Assembly: GCA_016186645.1 (NCBI GenBank)
Contig: JACPLF010000010.1
Location: 10,269-74,268 of the forward strand
Length of the DNA: 64,000 nucleotides
Source of the DNA: Candidatus Levyibacteriota bacterium
GTDB taxonomy: Bacteria > Patescibacteriota > Microgenomatia > Levybacterales > UBA12049
Reading direction: 5' to 3'
The notes under the pieces are model-generated. The model was given only the letters and a program-made list of their open reading frames with translations. It was not told the origin of the DNA and did no database searches. This document shows positions 4,459-18,840 of this stretch, piece after piece; within the stretch, counting starts at the first letter, position 1, and the number at the start of each line of letters is the position of its first letter. The position numbers were made by a program, and so were the translations under genes.

Positions 4459-4793
4459 TAGCGTTTTTCCTTAAGGTACCTTTCTTCTATTTTTTTCAGC
4501 TTATCTCCAACTGCACGTTCTACATCTACCCCTGCAGCAATTGCTAACTGCATGGCAGTTATAATAACATCTGCAAACTCTTCATACATATTGCGTTTGT
4601 CGAAATTTTGCAGCTTTGCGCGCCGTTGGAGTTTGAGAATCGAAAGAATATCATTGCATAGTTCTCCCACTTCTTCATTTAACTTCACTGTCTTTGTCAG
4701 AATCTCTTTTTCTGCTTGAGAGTAAAGTTTGTATTGGGGTCTTGTTTTCTCATTTAACAATTTAATTTTTTCTTGAAGGGATTTGAGATTCAT
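4458..4793 (-). CDS. MazG-like nucleotide pyrophosphohydrolase domain protein
   Basis: EEVGELCNDIL...EEFADVIITAMQLA (EExxE/D MazG signature). Track ORF extends to 4907, but the internal Met (MNLKSLQEKI) at 4793 avoids the N-terminal junk and most of the overlap with the divergent ORF at 4810. Confidence 0.55.
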   Translation of the reverse strand: MNLKSLQEKIKLLNEKTRPQYKLYSQAEKEILTKTVKLNEEVGELCNDILSILKLQRRAKLQNFDKRNMYEEFADVIITAMQLAIAAGVDVERAVGDKLKKIEERYLKEKR

Positions 4794-9282: not shown

Positions 9283-10449
9283 ATGGTAAAAAAAATACTG
9301 TTTGCACTTTTTCTTCTTGGAATATTAGTTTTCTTTAGCCCCTCAATAATTGTTCGTGCTGCAGAGTGCGATGACAAAGCTGGTCAAGAAAAAGTTGATT
9401 GTTTGCAAAATAAAGTTAATGACCTAAAAGGTCAGACCAAAACCCTCTCCTCGCAAATCTCCATAATGGATAGCCAGATTAGATTAACAGAAGCAAGGAT
9501 AGAAGCAAATGAAAGAGATATATTGGATTTAACATTGGATATAGATACCACAACTAAAAAAATAATTACCCTTCAAGATTCTTTGGAAAAAATTGCAGAA
9601 GTATTAATAAATAGAGTTGTCGCAACATATCAGGCAGGAAGAGTGCATCCATTGGAAATACTTCTATCATCTTCCAATGCCTCTAATTTGTTAACAAGAC
9701 TTAACTATCTAAGAATTGCACGAGACCATGACAAACAACTTATGATAGATGTCCAGCAAGCAAAAAATGATTATGCAAATCAAAAAGAAATTTTCGAAGC
9801 AAAGAAGAAAAAAATTGAAACGCTTAAATTGCAGCTTGAAGCATACAATAAAAATTTAGCGCAACAAAAAGTTGCAAAACAGCAGCTTCTTATCGCAACG
9901 CAAGCTGATGAGACAACTTACCAACAGCTTCTTGCGCAAGCTAAAGCTGAACAGGCTGTAGTTTTTGGTGGAGGAGTAGATTCATATCTGCGAGATGTTA
10001 ATCAAGGTGATGCTATTGGCTTTATTGCTTCCCATGGTGTTAGTCCTGGGTGTTCATCGGGAGCTCACTTGCATTTCGAAGTTCAGAAAGATGGCTCAGT
10101 CCAAAATCCTAATAATTATTTAAAATCAGCTAATTTTTCATACGATTACGGGTCTGATAGCTACAGTTACTATGGAACAGTTAATCCTTCAGGAGACTTA
10201 CCATGGCCGTTGAATGACCCATTGATTGTTCATCAGGGGTATGGTTCTCACGGATTTGCCCAAAACTTCTATTCAGGCGGCGTCCACACTGGATTTGATC
10301 TGGATTCCGGATCATCAACAGTAAAAGCCGTAAAATCGGGAAAACTTTATGGAGGATCATATAATTGTTCTAACGGAAAACTTTATTATGCAAAAGTTAT
10401 CCATGACAGCGGATTGGTTACTTGGTATTTACATACGGTAGCAAATTAA
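9283..10449 (+). CDS. Coiled-coil M23/LytM-family peptidase (EnvC-like partner of FtsEX)
   Basis: N-terminal signal/TM, long coiled-coil, then M23 motifs (GAHLHFEVQKDG; later HTGFDLD ... WYLH). Sits directly after ftsEX. Confidence 0.75.
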   Translation: MVKKILFALFLLGILVFFSPSIIVRAAECDDKAGQEKVDCLQNKVNDLKGQTKTLSSQISIMDSQIRLTEARIEANERDILDLTLDIDTTTKKIITLQDSLEKIAEVLINRVVATYQAGRVHPLEILLSSSNASNLLTRLNYLRIARDHDKQLMIDVQQAKNDYANQKEIFEAKKKKIETLKLQLEAYNKNLAQQKVAKQQLLIATQADETTYQQLLAQAKAEQAVVFGGGVDSYLRDVNQGDAIGFIASHGVSPGCSSGAHLHFEVQKDGSVQNPNNYLKSANFSYDYGSDSYSYYGTVNPSGDLPWPLNDPLIVHQGYGSHGFAQNFYSGGVHTGFDLDSGSSTVKAVKSGKLYGGSYNCSNGKLYYAKVIHDSGLVTWYLHTVAN

Positions 10450-14824: not shown

Positions 14825-15363
14825 GCCGATGGAAAGTTATTTCTCAAAGAACTATTTTTAAGGCAAAGCTTTTCAATCTTAAGGAAATAGAATTTGAGAC
14901 CAAAAATAAAAAAAAGAAAATACATCATCAAGCCGAACGTGTGCCAATCGTCTCTATTTTTCCCCTAACAGATTCATACGAAATCTATTTAATTTCAGAG
15001 TACAGGTATATGTTGGGAAAAACTATTATTGAAGCTGTAGCAGGGCATATAGAAAAAGGAGAAACAACTATTGCTGCGGCAAAAAGAGAGCTTAAAGAAG
15101 AAGCAGGAATTACTTCTCATCAACTTGAAGAAATCGCAAGGGTAGAAATGTCAGGAAGTGTTTTTAAAAGTAAATCTCATCTTTTTCTGGCAAAAGGTTT
15201 AGAAATTGGAGATAATAAGCCTGAGGATGATGAGGAGATCTCAGTTGTTAAAATGCCCCTAAGCGAAGCTGTTGCAAAAGTTATGAATGGGGAGATCAAT
15301 CATTCAACAAGTATGATAGGAATACTAATTCTAGACAAGTTAAGGATGCAGCAAAAGTTATGA
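14821..15363 (+). CDS. NUDIX hydrolase
   Basis: Nudix box GHIEKGETTIAAAKRELKEEAGI. Start set at MSRWK (14821). Confidence 0.7.
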   Translation: MSRWKVISQRTIFKAKLFNLKEIEFETKNKKKKIHHQAERVPIVSIFPLTDSYEIYLISEYRYMLGKTIIEAVAGHIEKGETTIAAAKRELKEEAGITSHQLEEIARVEMSGSVFKSKSHLFLAKGLEIGDNKPEDDEEISVVKMPLSEAVAKVMNGEINHSTSMIGILILDKLRMQQKL

Positions 15364-16370
15364 AACTGTTGGTAACAGGTGGTGCAGGATTTATAGGCTC
15401 AAATTTTATTCTTTACTGGATGAAAAAATACCCTCAGGATCAGATTGTAAACTTGGATAGCCTTACTTATGCTGGTAACCTAGAGAATCTTAAGGAAATT
15501 GAGAAAAATCCCAACTACAGTTTTATTCATGGAGATATTTGTGATTTAGACGTTGTTGAAAGATCCATGGTGGGAGTTGATTGGGTTGTCCATTTTGCTG
15601 CAGAAAGCCATGTGGATCGTTCTATCAAAGAGCCGTCACCTTTTGTTATGACAAATGTGATAGGAACACATTTCCTTTTAGATGCGTCCTTAAAGAATAG
15701 AGTAAAAAAATTCCACCATATTTCAACTGATGAAGTCTATGGAAGCCTTAATCTTTCTGATCAGAGTAAGTTTAATGAACGAACAAATTACAATCCCAGA
15801 AGCCCTTATTCAGCAAGTAAAGCAGGCTCAGACCATTTGGTAAGGGCATATAATAAAACTTATGGGTTACCAATTACTATAACGAATTGTTCAAATAATT
15901 TTGGACCATATCAATTTCCGGAAAAGTTTATTCCACTGGCAATAACTAACATTTTAGAGAATAAAAAGGTCCCAGTTTACGGAGACGGCTTATATGTAAG
16001 GGATTGGCTTTATGTTCTTGACCATTGTCATGCCATAGATTTAGTTTTAAATAAAGGCAAAGTTGGTGAAACATATTTGGTTGGAGGAATGACCAATGAT
16101 ATTTCTAATCTTGAGGTTATTAAAAAAATATTAAAAATAATGGGAAAAGATGAGGGTTTTATAGAGCACGTTAAAGATAGACTTGGGCATGACCGCCGCT
16201 ATGCAGTTGACTGGTCAAAAATAAAAAATGAATTGGGATGGAGACCGCTTCACAATTTTGACGAATGGCTTGAAAAAACTGTTGAATGGTACAAAGCAAA
16301 TGAGAAGTGGTGGAAAGATGTTAAAACAGGCGCATATCAAGAATACTACAAAGAGCAATATGGATCGTAG
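15360..16370 (+). CDS. rmlB: dTDP-glucose 4,6-dehydratase
   Basis: MKLLVTGGAGFIGSNF, YSASKAGSDHLVRAY (YxxxK), extended SDR, 336 aa. Confidence 0.9.
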   Translation: MKLLVTGGAGFIGSNFILYWMKKYPQDQIVNLDSLTYAGNLENLKEIEKNPNYSFIHGDICDLDVVERSMVGVDWVVHFAAESHVDRSIKEPSPFVMTNVIGTHFLLDASLKNRVKKFHHISTDEVYGSLNLSDQSKFNERTNYNPRSPYSASKAGSDHLVRAYNKTYGLPITITNCSNNFGPYQFPEKFIPLAITNILENKKVPVYGDGLYVRDWLYVLDHCHAIDLVLNKGKVGETYLVGGMTNDISNLEVIKKILKIMGKDEGFIEHVKDRLGHDRRYAVDWSKIKNELGWRPLHNFDEWLEKTVEWYKANEKWWKDVKTGAYQEYYKEQYGS

Positions 16371-16434
16371 AAGGCAACAGGTTAAAAAACTTTGCATTTT
16401 TGATAGACATTTGAGATAATGCTAAAATTAATCT

Positions 16435-17046
16435 ATGCAGTCCGAACATGGGTCATCTGTTCATGAATCGAAGCCTGAAAGAGGATCATTTTCTCCAGAA
16501 GTTGTTAGGAGATTAAAGCAAGAAGGTTATCAAATTTTTACTTTGGACGGCGATTCACTGAGGATTTTGCAAGAAAAAAGAAAAATATCAAGTTCATATG
16601 CTGCTGACTATTTTAATATCAATGATGGGCATTCAGAGCTAAGGCAAATTGCAATTCTGCCGAATCAATTATTTTTGCCCGTTTTGCCAGTAAAAGAAGT
16701 ATATAAACCAGGTTCATTTCCACATATTCCTAGAAAAACTTTTCAACAGCAAGAAAAGGATGTAGAAGAGTATTCCAGACGTTTCTCTAAAACAATTGGA
16801 GGTACGAAGGCTATCATTGGTCAGATTTCCGATTATGCTGCAATTGCGTCTCTATATCTTGAGGAATCTGAGAATTATATTTTTGATGCGTTTCTTTATG
16901 TCCAAGATAGATCTCCTAAGGGGGATAATCTTTTGGCTTTTGTTGGTAGACATATGGCTGGAATAGGTGTGAGCGTGTATCAATGGGATGCTCATTTAGA
17001 CGGAAATCGACAGCCTAAAGTTGCTCCACTTATAATTCCTGCTTAG
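16435..17046 (+). CDS. Hypothetical protein (no recognised motif), own promoter with extended -10 (TGAGATAAT)
   Basis: 203 aa ORF; TTGCAT ... TGAGATAATG upstream. Lies between rmlB and the TrpR-like cassette. Confidence 0.45.
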   Translation: MQSEHGSSVHESKPERGSFSPEVVRRLKQEGYQIFTLDGDSLRILQEKRKISSSYAADYFNINDGHSELRQIAILPNQLFLPVLPVKEVYKPGSFPHIPRKTFQQQEKDVEEYSRRFSKTIGGTKAIIGQISDYAAIASLYLEESENYIFDAFLYVQDRSPKGDNLLAFVGRHMAGIGVSVYQWDAHLDGNRQPKVAPLIIPA

Positions 17047-17110
17047 TTTTATTTTGTTTCAAAAGAACTATTTCTGATTTTTCAAGCTTAAGAGATGGTG
17101 TAATGATTAA

Positions 17111-17132
17111 GTGAAGATTTTGGGAACGGGAT
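17111..17132. repeat. Degenerate duplicate of the rmlD 5' end (GTGAAGATTTTGGGAACGGGAT vs ATGAAGATTTTGGGGACGGGAT at 17956-17977)
   Basis: 20/22 identical; similarity extends about 10 bp further upstream. The upstream copy reads V-K-I-L-G-T-G-stop. Confidence 0.7.
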
Positions 17133-17136
17133 AAAA

Positions 17137-17160
17137 TTCAACAGTTTGAATCATTGAACC
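17137..17160. repeat. 24-bp direct repeat TTCAACAGTTTGAATCATTGAACC (copy 1; copy 2 at 17638-17661), imperfect palindrome with TTCAA/TTGAA arms
   Basis: Exact 24/24 identity; the two copies immediately bracket the TrpR-like gene 17169..17642. Confidence 0.85.
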
Positions 17161-17168
17161 GATAGATA

Positions 17169-17642
17169 TCAAAACTTCTCTCTTTTGAGTTTTCTCCTAA
17201 GCAATTCTTTTCCTTTTTTACTTTTCCTTTCAAATCCTATGCTTTCAAATCGCTTTGGCGGAGATAGTCTTATTAATATTTCTTCTATGTTGTCAATTAA
17301 CGCTTGTTTACTTTGCGCTCTCAATATATTCTCAACGACTTTTCTATAGCCGCCTTTTCCATGTTTTAGCCAGAGCGAAACATTCATGATGGTTGCACGG
17401 GAGACTTTTAATGTGTGGTCAATATACTCGTAAGTTTTACCCTTGGTCAACAATACCGCTATTGCCAGGCGTTTTATGAGCATAATTTTTTCTGCAGGAG
17501 AAAGTAAGTCTTCAATAAAATTTTTTGCCTCAACGGGAGTTTTTATATCGACAACTGTTTTTAAAAAAACCTCAAAGATAGTATTTTCTAATTCCTTGTC
17601 AAGAAATCTTCTGGAAATTTTTGACATCTTACAATAGTTCAA
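17169..17642 (-). CDS. TrpR/YerC/YecD-family HTH DNA-binding protein with basic C-terminal tail
   Basis: LLSPAEKIMLIKRLAIAVLLTKGKTYEYIDHTLKVSRATIMNV matches the TrpR_YerC-type helix-turn-helix. Paralog of 31856..32266. Confidence 0.55.
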   Translation of the reverse strand: MNYCKMSKISRRFLDKELENTIFEVFLKTVVDIKTPVEAKNFIEDLLSPAEKIMLIKRLAIAVLLTKGKTYEYIDHTLKVSRATIMNVSLWLKHGKGGYRKVVENILRAQSKQALIDNIEEILIRLSPPKRFESIGFERKSKKGKELLRRKLKREKF

Positions 17643-17661
17643 CAGTTTGAATCATTGAACC
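17638..17661. repeat. 24-bp direct repeat copy 2 (overlaps the start codon of the TrpR-like gene)
   Basis: Identical to 17137-17160. Confidence 0.85.
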
Positions 17662-17734
17662 ATTATCAGCATAGTTCAGATAGTTAAATTTGTCAAATAT
17701 TAAAGTATTAAATGTTGTGAAATAATTTATCCGC

Positions 17735-17905
17735 CTTCGCAGAAAACCACGGGTTTACCCGTGGATGAATACACAAAAATGCTTCGGCGGATGTCGCCCA
17801 AATGGAGTAAGGCGGATAACCCTTCCGTAGTTCTGCATTGCAGAACGAAGGAGGGTATTATGGGAACAACGGCTTTAGCCGTGGGGCTCCATAAAAACCC
17901 ACACT
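17735..17905 (+). ncRNA. Candidate structured RNA of unknown class (GC-rich, multi-hairpin) inside the inserted segment upstream of rmlD
   Basis: Local GC well above the flanks. Hairpins: CCACGGGtttaCCCGTGG, GCttcgGC (UUCG tetraloop), CCTTCcgtaGTTCTGCattGCAGAACGAAGG, CGGCtttaGCCG. No convincing ORF. Strand uncertain. Confidence 0.25.
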
Positions 17906-17955
17906 TTTGACAATACACGTTTATGTATATTTTGAAAAGATGATATAATTTTGTA

Positions 17956-18840
17956 ATGAAGATTTTGGGGACGGGATTAGATGGACTTGTTGGATCAAGG
18001 ATTGTTGAGCTTTTGGGAGATAAGTACGCATTTGAAAACCTTAGTATCAGTACAGGTATAGATATCACCAACAGAGATGATGTTTTAGAAAAAGTAAAAA
18101 ATTCAGATGCTCAAATAGTCCTTCATCTGGCTGCAAAAACAAATGTAGACGGTTGTGAATTGGATAAGCCATTGGGAGAAAAGGGTGATGCTTGGAGAAT
18201 TAATGTTTGCGGAACGCAAAATGTAGTTGACGGATGTTTGCAAAGTAATAAAAAATTAATCTACATTTCCACAGATTTCGTGTTCGATGGCACAAATCCG
18301 CCGCTTGGGGGATATTCCGAAGAAGACATTCCAAATCCAATCAACTGGTACGCCAAAACAAAATATGAGGGGGAAAAAATCGTACAAAATTTAAAAACTC
18401 CTTGGATTATCGCTCGTATTGCATCTCCGTATAGGGCGATGTTTGAACGATTGGATTTTGCTCGGGCAATTCTTAAGAGATTGCAAGACGGTCTTCCTGT
18501 TGCCGGCGTTACAGACCATATTTTTACTCCAACATTTATTGACGATATTGTTGTTGCTTTATATACGCTTATTGAAAATAGTTCGCAGGGTATATTCCAC
18601 GTTGTTGGAAGCCAGAGCTTGACGCCTTTTGATGCCTCTCACTTGATAGCGAAAGAGTTTGATCTGGATGGGTCTCAGATAAGTCAAACCACGCGAACTG
18701 AGTTTTTTAATAATCGAGCACCTAGGTCTTTTCAACTGGCACTTAAAAATGATAAAATAGGAAAATTGGGAATTAAGATGAAGACATTTGAAGAAGGACT
18801 TAAAGAAATAAAATCTCAAATGTCAAAAAATAACTTATGA
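17956..18840 (+). CDS. rmlD: dTDP-4-dehydrorhamnose reductase
   Basis: MKILGTGLDGLVGSRIVELL...ISTDFVFDGTNPPLGGYSEEDIPNPINWYAKTKYEGE matches the RmlD substrate-binding family. Extended -10 TGATATAAT immediately upstream. Confidence 0.8.
   Translation: MKILGTGLDGLVGSRIVELLGDKYAFENLSISTGIDITNRDDVLEKVKNSDAQIVLHLAAKTNVDGCELDKPLGEKGDAWRINVCGTQNVVDGCLQSNKKLIYISTDFVFDGTNPPLGGYSEEDIPNPINWYAKTKYEGEKIVQNLKTPWIIARIASPYRAMFERLDFARAILKRLQDGLPVAGVTDHIFTPTFIDDIVVALYTLIENSSQGIFHVVGSQSLTPFDASHLIAKEFDLDGSQISQTTRTEFFNNRAPRSFQLALKNDKIGKLGIKMKTFEEGLKEIKSQMSKNNL

Follow-up and report, generated by a model that had tools for sequence, protein, structure and literature searches.

What occupies the space between rmlB and rmlD in a Levybacteria genome, and how did it come to be there? 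The question is raised by a 64,000-nucleotide stretch of DNA (the window) from a Candidatus Levyibacteriota bacterium (assembly GCA_016186645.1, contig JACPLF010000010.1, forward-strand positions 10,269 to 74,268), a member of the Candidate Phyla Radiation (CPR) with a low GC content (~35%). A reading made from the DNA without database searches (hereafter, the sequence-only reading) described the ~820-bp segment between these genes as an insertion with three nested layers, namely, a duplicated 5' end of rmlD, exact 24-bp direct repeats around a TrpR/YerC-like gene, and a GC-rich structured RNA. Our analysis indicates, with a probability of roughly 0.7, that the segment instead consists of three separate features of different age that lie side by side: a regulator gene with two candidate operators, the scar of an old insertion at the start of rmlD, and a younger derivative of a mobile element. 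Each of these components is of an already known kind: the first is an autoregulator of the TrpR family, the second an insertion scar that includes a duplicated promoter, and the third a miniature derivative of IS200. The evidence comes from sequence anatomy, protein fold, synteny, empty sites, family-wide conservation of sites and homology of element ends to IS200. All coordinates refer to the window; comparison loci and contigs are denoted by L numbers.

A TrpR-fold regulator flanked by paired palindromes

The gene in the middle of the segment (17169-17627, minus strand) encodes a TrpR/YerC-like helix-turn-helix (HTH) regulator, as indicated by profile comparison, fold and alignment. Translation starts at the ATG at 17627, which yields a protein of 152 aa, as in the homologs; the 157 aa of the sequence-only reading would require a TTG start. 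An exact look-up of the protein gave no match, probably because the database entry has the gene with a different start. The identity of the protein was correctly recognized in that reading: residues 21-101 match the Trp_repressor domain PF01371 at 49.7 bits (E 4e-13; Pfam gathering cut-off 27), and the profile of the regulator family matches PDB entries 3g1c, 3frw and 3kor with E values of 3e-11 to 2e-9. The AlphaFold2 model has pLDDT values of 86-94 across residues 11-100 and adopts the TrpR-type all-helical fold, with 3kor, 3frw, 3g1c and Escherichia coli TrpR as the top Foldseek matches (target-normalised TM-score 0.75-0.85). The TrpR fold takes up the N-terminal ~105 aa and is followed by a basic extension of ~50 aa, with an invariant LSPPK motif in the homolog alignment and a lysine/arginine-rich tail (LSPPK...KKGKELLRRK). 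The solved TrpR/YerC structures lack this extension (residues ~100-152, encoded at 17169-17330), and its model is of low confidence (pLDDT 52-71); a role as a module for minor-groove contacts or oligomerisation is conceivable.

The regulator scores 39.2 bits against the YerC/YecD (HisR) equivalog TIGR02531 of NCBIfam, under the curated cut-off of 42.2, and belongs to a separate, longer subfamily. An exhaustive profile search yielded 950 clusters (50% identity) at E <= 1e-10, mostly of 140-152 aa. For comparison of genomic contexts, we used ~19 distinct loci encoding regulators with 43-93% identity, from Levybacteria, Curtissbacteria, one metagenome-assembled genome (MAG) of Paceibacteria and several mislabelled MAGs. 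A regulator of the TrpR/HisR fold is typical of Levy-, Curtiss- and Paceibacteria.

The exact 24-bp repeats around the HTH gene are present as the sequence-only reading described them: the 24-mer TTCAACAGTTTGAATCATTGAACC occurs exactly twice in the window (0.00 expected), at 17137-17160 and 17638-17661, and has no further match there at up to 3 mismatches. Each copy comprises a 22-bp palindrome plus 2 nt. The copy at 17638-17661 (operator 1) lies 10 nt upstream of the regulator ATG, next to a predicted regulator promoter, TTGACA-17 nt-TATGCT (17668-17696, minus strand), the -35 box of which is conserved in relatives; operator 1 begins 7 nt after the -10 box and thus covers the predicted transcription start. 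The copy at 17137-17160 (operator 2) lies 8 nt past the regulator stop codon.

Two copies of a palindrome with the consensus TTCAAYRRTT-NN-AAYYRTTGAA (22 bp) flank the regulator gene in every one of the ~19 loci, whatever the genomic context. The upstream copy is located 3-24 nt before the ATG; relative to the end of the stop codon, the downstream copy varies in position from 19 nt before to 23 nt after, and the palindrome-to-palindrome spacing is 477-513 bp. Variants are matched between the two copies of a genome: TAAAATGATTTGAATCATTTAA is found twice in L020, TTCAATGAACTGAATCATTGAA twice in L021, half-sites TTCGATAG in both copies of L157, and TTCGATTATTCGAATAATCGAA in L019. In several lineages, the -10 box, located 17 nt after TTGACA, coincides with the center of the palindrome (TAAACT or CAAACT). 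The relative orientation of the operators, direct or inverted, turned out to be ambiguous as a test against direct repeats, with differences limited to 2-5 central or half-site positions.

Because the palindromes accompany the regulator gene in every context, including the SpoU/GlmS context described below, the 24-mers are not the ends of an element. The alternative raised in the sequence-only reading, twin operators for the HTH protein, is the better reading, given that the flanking palindromes co-vary across the ~19 loci. Proteins of the TrpR family, including YerC/HisR, bind 20-bp palindromes and are autoregulatory in about half of the genomes studied (PMC9413887). To judge by their sequence and position, the 24-mers are most likely the operators of the repressor, and we treat them as candidate sites. 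We infer that a regulator dimer bound to operator 1, over the start site of its own promoter, most likely represses its own synthesis, and that operator 2 would serve as a second binding site, which may loop to operator 1 or block convergent transcription. In the window, the source of such transcription would be the duplicated copy of the leaderless rmlD promoter, located 33 nt from operator 2.

In the window, the palindromes are confined to the flanks of the regulator gene, with no third site in the 64 kb and no operator of the kind that YerC/YecD has at histidine genes; none is present in the empty-site rml regions of L151-L153 either. The neighbors of the regulator are rml genes, SpoU, GlmS and others, with no link to his genes. 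A third perfect palindrome, TTCAATAGTTTAAACTATTGAA, is found at L010:6522 (= L006:7522). It lies ~1 kb past operator 2, with a PIN-domain gene on one side and an open reading frame (ORF) of 183 aa on the other; in some genomes, the regulator may control further genes. Outside the rml clade (L011, L012, L013, L014, L015, L157, L158), the regulator is usually located between a divergent gene for a SpoU-type methylase and a convergent glmS, and in the Paceibacteria MAG L021, the regulator unit comes after rmlB and rmlD. A recurrent link of the unit to cell-envelope sugar metabolism is possible.

A probable old insertion that duplicated the predicted leaderless rmlD start

The duplication of the 5' end of rmlD beside the segment is real and is longer than claimed in the sequence-only reading, amounting to 43-48 nt and including a -10 box. 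The 21-mer core of the rmlD start, TGAAGATTTTGGGRACGGGAT, is found in the window only at 17112 and 17957 (0.01 expected). The similarity between 17090-17137 and 17935-17982 extends over 48 nt at 77% identity (36 of 43 positions identical in another alignment), and both copies contain an extended -10 box, TGGTGTAAT at 17096-17104 and TGATATAAT at 17941-17949. The distance from this box to the start codon is the same, TGGTGTAAT-N6-GTG in the upstream copy and TGATATAAT-N6-ATG in rmlD. Thus, the upstream copy (17090-17137, plus strand) is a truncated duplicate of a predicted leaderless promoter with its start codon (GTG at 17111), which opens an ORF of only 7 codons (VKILGTG; stop at 17132-17134). 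The downstream copy (17935-17982, plus strand) is presumably the functional one, of the leaderless type, with a -10 box that ends 6 nt before the ATG at 17956; judging from its sequence, it is now the predicted leaderless promoter from which rmlD is expressed.

The combination of an extended -10 box (TGnTRTAAT), exactly N6 and a start codon is found 6 times in the window compared with 0.68 expected. The four extra sites, at 4793 (minus strand), 34259 (plus), 42812 (minus) and 43069 (minus), each open an ORF of 86-580 aa. This enrichment, with the extra sites opening real ORFs, identifies the duplicated module as a leaderless promoter together with its start codon. It also suggests that many genes of this genome are transcribed into leaderless mRNAs.

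The segment has been compared with the corresponding loci of relatives. In seven of them, with regulators 78-93% identical to that of the window, rmlB is followed by variable cargo, the regulator gene in reverse orientation, and rmlD. Pseudo-copies of the rmlD start are present in the window, L009, L010, L154 and L156, and in none of L001, L004 and L008. The pseudo-copy of L154 is 57 nt long (51 identical) and includes the -10 box, and those of the window, L009 and L010 are shorter; the breakpoint ...GTCGGAT is common to the pseudo-copies. The arrangement is simplest in L156, where the rmlB stop codon is followed by 11 nt and a 40-nt copy of the rmlD 5' end, 40/40 identical to the real start, with no cargo in between. 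Operator 2 follows after another 34 nt, then come the regulator gene and operator 1, and the real rmlD is reached after ~150 nt and GATGATATAAT. L154 encodes a regulator identical to that of L156 and has an extra 437-aa gene inserted next to the pseudo-copy. A resemblance of the rmlD promoter region to the 3' end of rmlB is suggestive in L156 (a common ATGAT) and weak elsewhere.

The empty site that the sequence-only reading proposed to look for, with rmlB directly before rmlD, was found in three other Levybacteria, L151, L152 and L153. In these genomes, the rmlB stop codon overlaps the rmlD start codon (ATGA), and there is neither a regulator gene nor an operator site; their RmlD proteins are 82, 77 and 71% identical to that of the window, as close as those of the occupied relatives. 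Here, as with an integrative element, the target is directly repeated at both borders (43-57 nt) and relatives have empty sites. No recombinase or transposase was found in the window, in agreement with the sequence-only reading, and the content between rmlB and rmlD is limited to the HTH gene and lineage-specific cargo, with no integrase or recombinase gene.

The idea of an insertion that restored the 5' end of rmlD is thus borne out in part: the duplicated rmlD start is a true insertion scar, but it is old and shared across the clade, and the segment is not one nested element. A recent insertion is at odds with the occupied state common to relatives with regulators 78-93% identical. We propose that, in an ancestor of this clade, rmlD overlapped rmlB and received the whole regulator unit at about codon 13/14, and that the insertion would have duplicated ~57 bp on both sides, that is, the promoter region and the first 40 nt of rmlD. 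The downstream copy would then have driven leaderless expression of rmlD, and the upstream copy would have decayed to the 43-48 nt that abut operator 2 in the window. Site-specific integration, a Campbell-type crossover or another duplication-coupled rearrangement are equally possible as the mechanism. In other lineages, the regulator unit has a different home, between SpoU and GlmS.

A young IS200-type miniature element between the regulator and rmlD

The GC-rich, hairpin-dense non-coding block of the sequence-only reading is confirmed by its composition (GC 0.43-0.47 at 17725-17915 compared with about 0.35 around it) and by its folding, which is better than that of shuffled sequence on both strands (z -5.8 and -5.9); its limits are 17729-17892. 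It does not form a layer of a nested element. In an alignment of the regulator-rmlD intergenic regions of six genomes, the block is present only in the window (325 nt compared with 110-175 nt), and as a clean insertion absent from five syntenic relatives, it represents a separate, younger event. There is no second copy of the block in the window.

The block is, by its ends and anatomy, a non-autonomous IS200-type miniature element of 164 bp (17729-17892, plus strand). The left-end (LE) hairpin CCACGGGTTTACCCGTGG is at 17747-17764 (element nt 19-36), and the left terminus (17729-17737) pairs with an internal segment (17809-17817) in a helix denoted P1. Next come a stem-loop that hides a Shine-Dalgarno (SD) sequence, CCCTTCC...GAAGGAGGG (17820-17855, element nt 92-127), and an ATG at 17860 (element nt 132), which is followed by three codons and the right-end (RE) hairpin ACGGCTTTAGCCGT(GG) at 17869-17882 (17884 with the GG). 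The RE hairpin resembles the LE hairpin, and the RE terminus GGGGCTCCAT ends at 17892; all of these features are on the plus strand. On the minus strand, the LE hairpin is followed by TTTTCT, which resembles a terminator, and a promoter-like signal is also found. The LE of IS200 has the same order of features, with a bidirectional-terminator hairpin at nt 12-34, an SD-sequestering stem-loop at nt 69-138, and then the ATG (PMC4513863). Elements of the IS200/IS605 group typically have similar subterminal LE and RE hairpins on one strand and no terminal inverted repeats or target duplication (PMC6006769).

A blastn search against plasmids identified 19 from Vibrio and Alteromonas that match the element over 31/31 nt (17740-17770, CAGAAAACCACGGGTTTACCCGTGGATGAAT). 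Two of these records were inspected, one from each genus, and in both an IS200/IS605 tnpA gene is annotated 27 nt downstream of the matching block. The same 31 nt correspond to L142:2501-2531, the IS200 LE of pVA1-type Vibrio plasmids, and such identity across phyla is unusually strong for a non-coding end of an insertion sequence (IS). Plasmid matches were limited to this LE block; blastn against phages and E. coli genomes gave no match to the block, and the L145 and L147 queries gave none against plasmids.

Scanning metagenomes for the 31-nt block with a second hairpin 85-115 nt downstream yielded seven more copies on unrelated contigs with GC contents of 36-57%, all intergenic and some between convergent genes; the closest one, in L144, is 87% identical to the window element. 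The flanks of the copies are unrelated to each other, with neither target duplication nor terminal inverted repeats, and no tnpA was detected near the seven copies, in the window element or in the 64-kb window (tblastn). Of five copies compared, four have a T run at the end of the left flank and one has TCT. Elements of the IS200/IS605 group insert 3' of a short target that pairs with a guide 5' of the LE hairpin; the candidate guide region of these copies reads AAAA, AAGA or AAAG. The loop-closing pair of the LE and RE hairpins covaries (C-G/G-C) across copies, and RNAalifold recovers the same helices in six copies, with eight pairs showing compensatory changes and G-U pairs that point to the plus strand. 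A subfamily represented by L148 and L149 aligns with the Alteromonas IS200 LE and also with the last ~35 nt of tnpA and the RE (...AGCTGTAA...AAGAACC-hairpin-ATCTATTAA). Having kept the LE, the 3' end of tnpA and the RE, these elements are internal-deletion derivatives of IS200. Several features expected of IS200 are present (LE and RE hairpins on one strand, homology of the ends to tnpA-bearing copies and the regulatory anatomy of the LE), and the tnpA gene for a Y1 HUH transposase is absent. L149 also contains a CRISPR array (L149:8300-8549), the repeats of which are just below the RF01343 threshold.

The window element was inserted recently, 3' of a T run, between two predicted divergent promoters, neither of which it disrupts, and consists of an LE with its 5' untranslated region (5'UTR) structures fused to an RE hairpin, with no transposase. 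Searches for a full-length parent IS with termini of the window type (two end patterns) gave 0 matches in viral contigs. A looser LE pattern gave 3 chance matches in viral contigs, with neither a hairpin nor tnpA, and a 16-mer hairpin pattern proved too unspecific, occurring in at least 120 stretches; among the matches listed, only L033 has a tnpA, which belongs to an uninformative IS605-type element.

Alternative explanations

That the whole ~820-bp segment is one recent miniature or decayed integrative element, with the 24-mers as its ends and the HTH gene and structured RNA as its cargo, accounts for the direct repeats, the duplicated end of the target gene and the existence of empty sites. 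We consider this scarcely credible: whatever the context or lineage, and outside rml too, the 24-mers flank the regulator, five relatives with the remainder of the segment lack the GC-rich block, the insertion is common to relatives with 78-93% identical regulators, and the duplicated rmlD end lies outside the 24-mers (34 nt away in L156). Cassettes that lack the block and palindrome-flanked cassettes outside rml already largely refute it. A somewhat less improbable, although still very unlikely, explanation treats the operator-gene-operator unit as a mobile cassette, with the palindromes as recombination sites for a recombinase acting in trans or for the HTH protein itself. This would explain why both palindromes always travel with the regulator gene, and is compatible with the intact unit in at least three contexts (rml, SpoU/GlmS and others), with palindrome copies that are often identical past palindromic need (24-30 nt in the window, L011, L020 and L021), and with the long target duplication that brackets the unit in the rml locus. 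However, the protein has no catalytic domain and no recombinase is encoded nearby, the duplicated target does not abut the palindromes, and the insert includes the promoter and ~150 nt beyond operator 1; moreover, each contig has a single copy of the unit, and the context shifts only at deep divergence (<= 65% identity), as in ordinary rearrangement. An extended version, to which we assign only a slightly better chance, envisages a self-contained relocatable module of CPR bacteria, in which the palindromes are both operators and the sites of moving or homogenising. If so, the entry between rmlB and rmlD with the ~57-bp duplication would be one case of an undescribed insertion process that is independent of a recombinase or trans-mobilised. 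In a weaker form of this version, a widely conserved CPR regulator would use the downstream operator to insulate its own gene from convergent transcription.

Alternatively, the 24-mers might function at the RNA level rather than as protein operators, forming hairpins that stabilise the regulator mRNA at its 5' end and terminate it at its 3' end. The asymmetric positions in the window are G-U wobbles in the sense strand rather than mismatches, and operator 2 of the window is followed by TTTTAT; but there are many lineages with an upstream site that overlaps the -10 box and is transcribed only in part, a U tract is missing from most downstream sites, and hairpins need neither equal sequences at both ends nor TTCAA/TTGAA arms across CPR classes. 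We consider this explanation very unlikely. The GC-rich block has, for its part, a host-RNA interpretation, as a small RNA or an rmlD leader or riboswitch. Its strong predicted folding (z about -5.8) and conserved structure with compensatory pairs, its location upstream of rmlD and its promoter- and terminator-like signals on the minus strand are in line with such a role, and regulatory RNAs are known to arise from IS200 left ends in Salmonella (PMC5435999, PMC4513863). Nevertheless, we regard a host RNA as highly unlikely: the block is absent from five syntenic relatives, other copies have unrelated surroundings, some of them between convergent genes, its ends show homology to both the LE and the RE of tnpA-carrying IS200 copies, and no Rfam family matches it at gathering or permissive thresholds (Rfam 15 gave no credible match at E <= 10 in 17000-18050 and none at E <= 0.1 in seven related loci). 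The element may conceivably have taken on a domesticated RNA role later. A more serious, even if improbable, contender is the reverse polarity of the old event: the occupied state would be ancestral, the empty junctions would have arisen by deletion, and the rmlD-start copy would be a local tandem duplication kept as a second promoter. The first ~16 nt of the pseudo-copy and its -10 box are kept in all five lineages that have it, hinting at a function, and empty and occupied genomes interleave in the rmlB/rmlD tree. On the other side, recombination between the repeats would leave a spacer, as at the left junction of L156, and not the ATGA overlap seen at all three empty sites; other Levy- and Curtissbacteria carry the unit in the SpoU/GlmS context; and in the outgroup L021 (Paceibacteria), the rmlB-rmlD gap of ~0.5 kb contains one ORF and no unit, the unit being located after rmlD.

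Several observations weigh against the interpretation as three separate features that we favor. The interleaving is seen in a neighbor-joining tree of RmlB and RmlD (computed without support values), and a single insertion then needs later losses or allele exchange. The two 24-mers are identical even at non-palindromic positions, beyond what selection on operators needs, which implies gene conversion or an extra constraint. The spacing of 477-513 bp does not maintain a constant helical phase, so that looping is not specifically supported. Finally, the searches made did not recover a full-length parent IS with the ends of the window's subfamily, and the 64-kb window has no tnpA.

Comparison with known systems and implications

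The regulator shares with HisR (YerC) and TrpR the PF01371 fold and a palindromic operator of ~20-22 bp over its own promoter (PMC9413887). It differs from them in its length of 152 aa with the ~50-aa basic C-terminal extension, in a score below the YerC/YecD cut-off, in the second operator that is always just past the stop codon, and in the lack of a link to his or trp genes. Auxiliary operators are found in the lac (O1/O2), gal (OE/OI) and deo systems. In these systems, too, an operator is present twice within a few hundred bp, at the promoter and downstream of it; here, in contrast, the entire gene separates the two sites, and their distance is nearly constant (~490-510 bp).

Like integrative elements that target gene ends and bring a replacement copy of the end with them (islands in tRNA or protein genes), the old insertion shows a direct duplication of the target end, an intact gene and empty sites in relatives. 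Unlike those elements, it lacks an integrase and is small, with an insert of only ~0.85 kb and a duplication that takes in a promoter, and the event is old and fixed in the clade. The miniature element resembles IS200 and PATE- or MITE-like derivatives in its left hairpin, which corresponds to a bidirectional terminator, and in the 5'UTR stem-loop that sequesters a strong SD. With IS200, it also shares the lack of terminal inverted repeats and target duplication, the similar LE and RE hairpins on one strand, and the 31/31-nt LE identity to plasmid copies, and the sister subfamily L148/L149 keeps the tnpA 3' end and RE. Unlike IS200, the window element lacks tnpA, its ATG being followed by three codons and then the RE hairpin, and its left terminus pairs with an internal segment (P1).

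To our knowledge, few transcription factors and almost no operators have been characterized in CPR bacteria. The pairing described here links a large family of regulators in CPR bacteria (the 950 clusters) to candidate operators and is directly testable. The rule is simple: every locus examined has one site at the promoter and a second, identical site immediately past the stop codon. We know of no earlier description of such paired sites. The rmlB-rmlD junction appears to be a case of an rml operon that was broken and then mended through the duplication of a leaderless promoter; relatives still show the empty site. The third component shows a Levybacteria genome with an IS200-type miniature element, the LE of which matches Vibrio plasmid copies over 31 nt. 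This calls for caution in the discovery of non-coding RNAs: an intergenic block of an AT-rich genome that is rich in GC and folds strongly may turn out to be a remnant of IS200 ends.

Gene neighborhood and variable cargo

The gene order around the segment is a CAP-domain protein, a small ORF, rmlA, NUDIX, rmlB, a 203-aa ORF, the segment itself, rmlD, ugd and several epimerases. On the plus strand, rmlB (15360-16370) encodes dTDP-glucose 4,6-dehydratase, matching the Pfam GDP_Man_Dehyd/Epimerase families, and rmlD (17956-18840) encodes dTDP-4-dehydrorhamnose reductase (PF04321, E 2e-51), for which a protein recorded as 'Candidatus Levybacteria bacterium' is 100% identical. The 203-aa ORF (16435-17046, plus strand) is lineage-specific cargo between rmlB and the regulator unit and has no match in Pfam, NCBIfam or PHROG.

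The gap between rmlB and the regulator unit (16371-17136 in the window) is a hot spot, with cargo that differs from one relative to another (L001, L004, L006, L008, L009, L154, L156): the 203-aa orphan in the window, and an inositol phosphatase, a PIN toxin pair, a 437-aa ORF or no cargo elsewhere. Even L154 and L156, with 100% identical regulators, are set apart by the 437-aa gene. Variation extends to the upstream part of the cluster, where RmlA of L010/L006 is only 49% identical to that of the window compared with 69-81% for RmlB, RmlD and Ugd, which suggests that rmlA was swapped for a different allele or paralog in these genomes.

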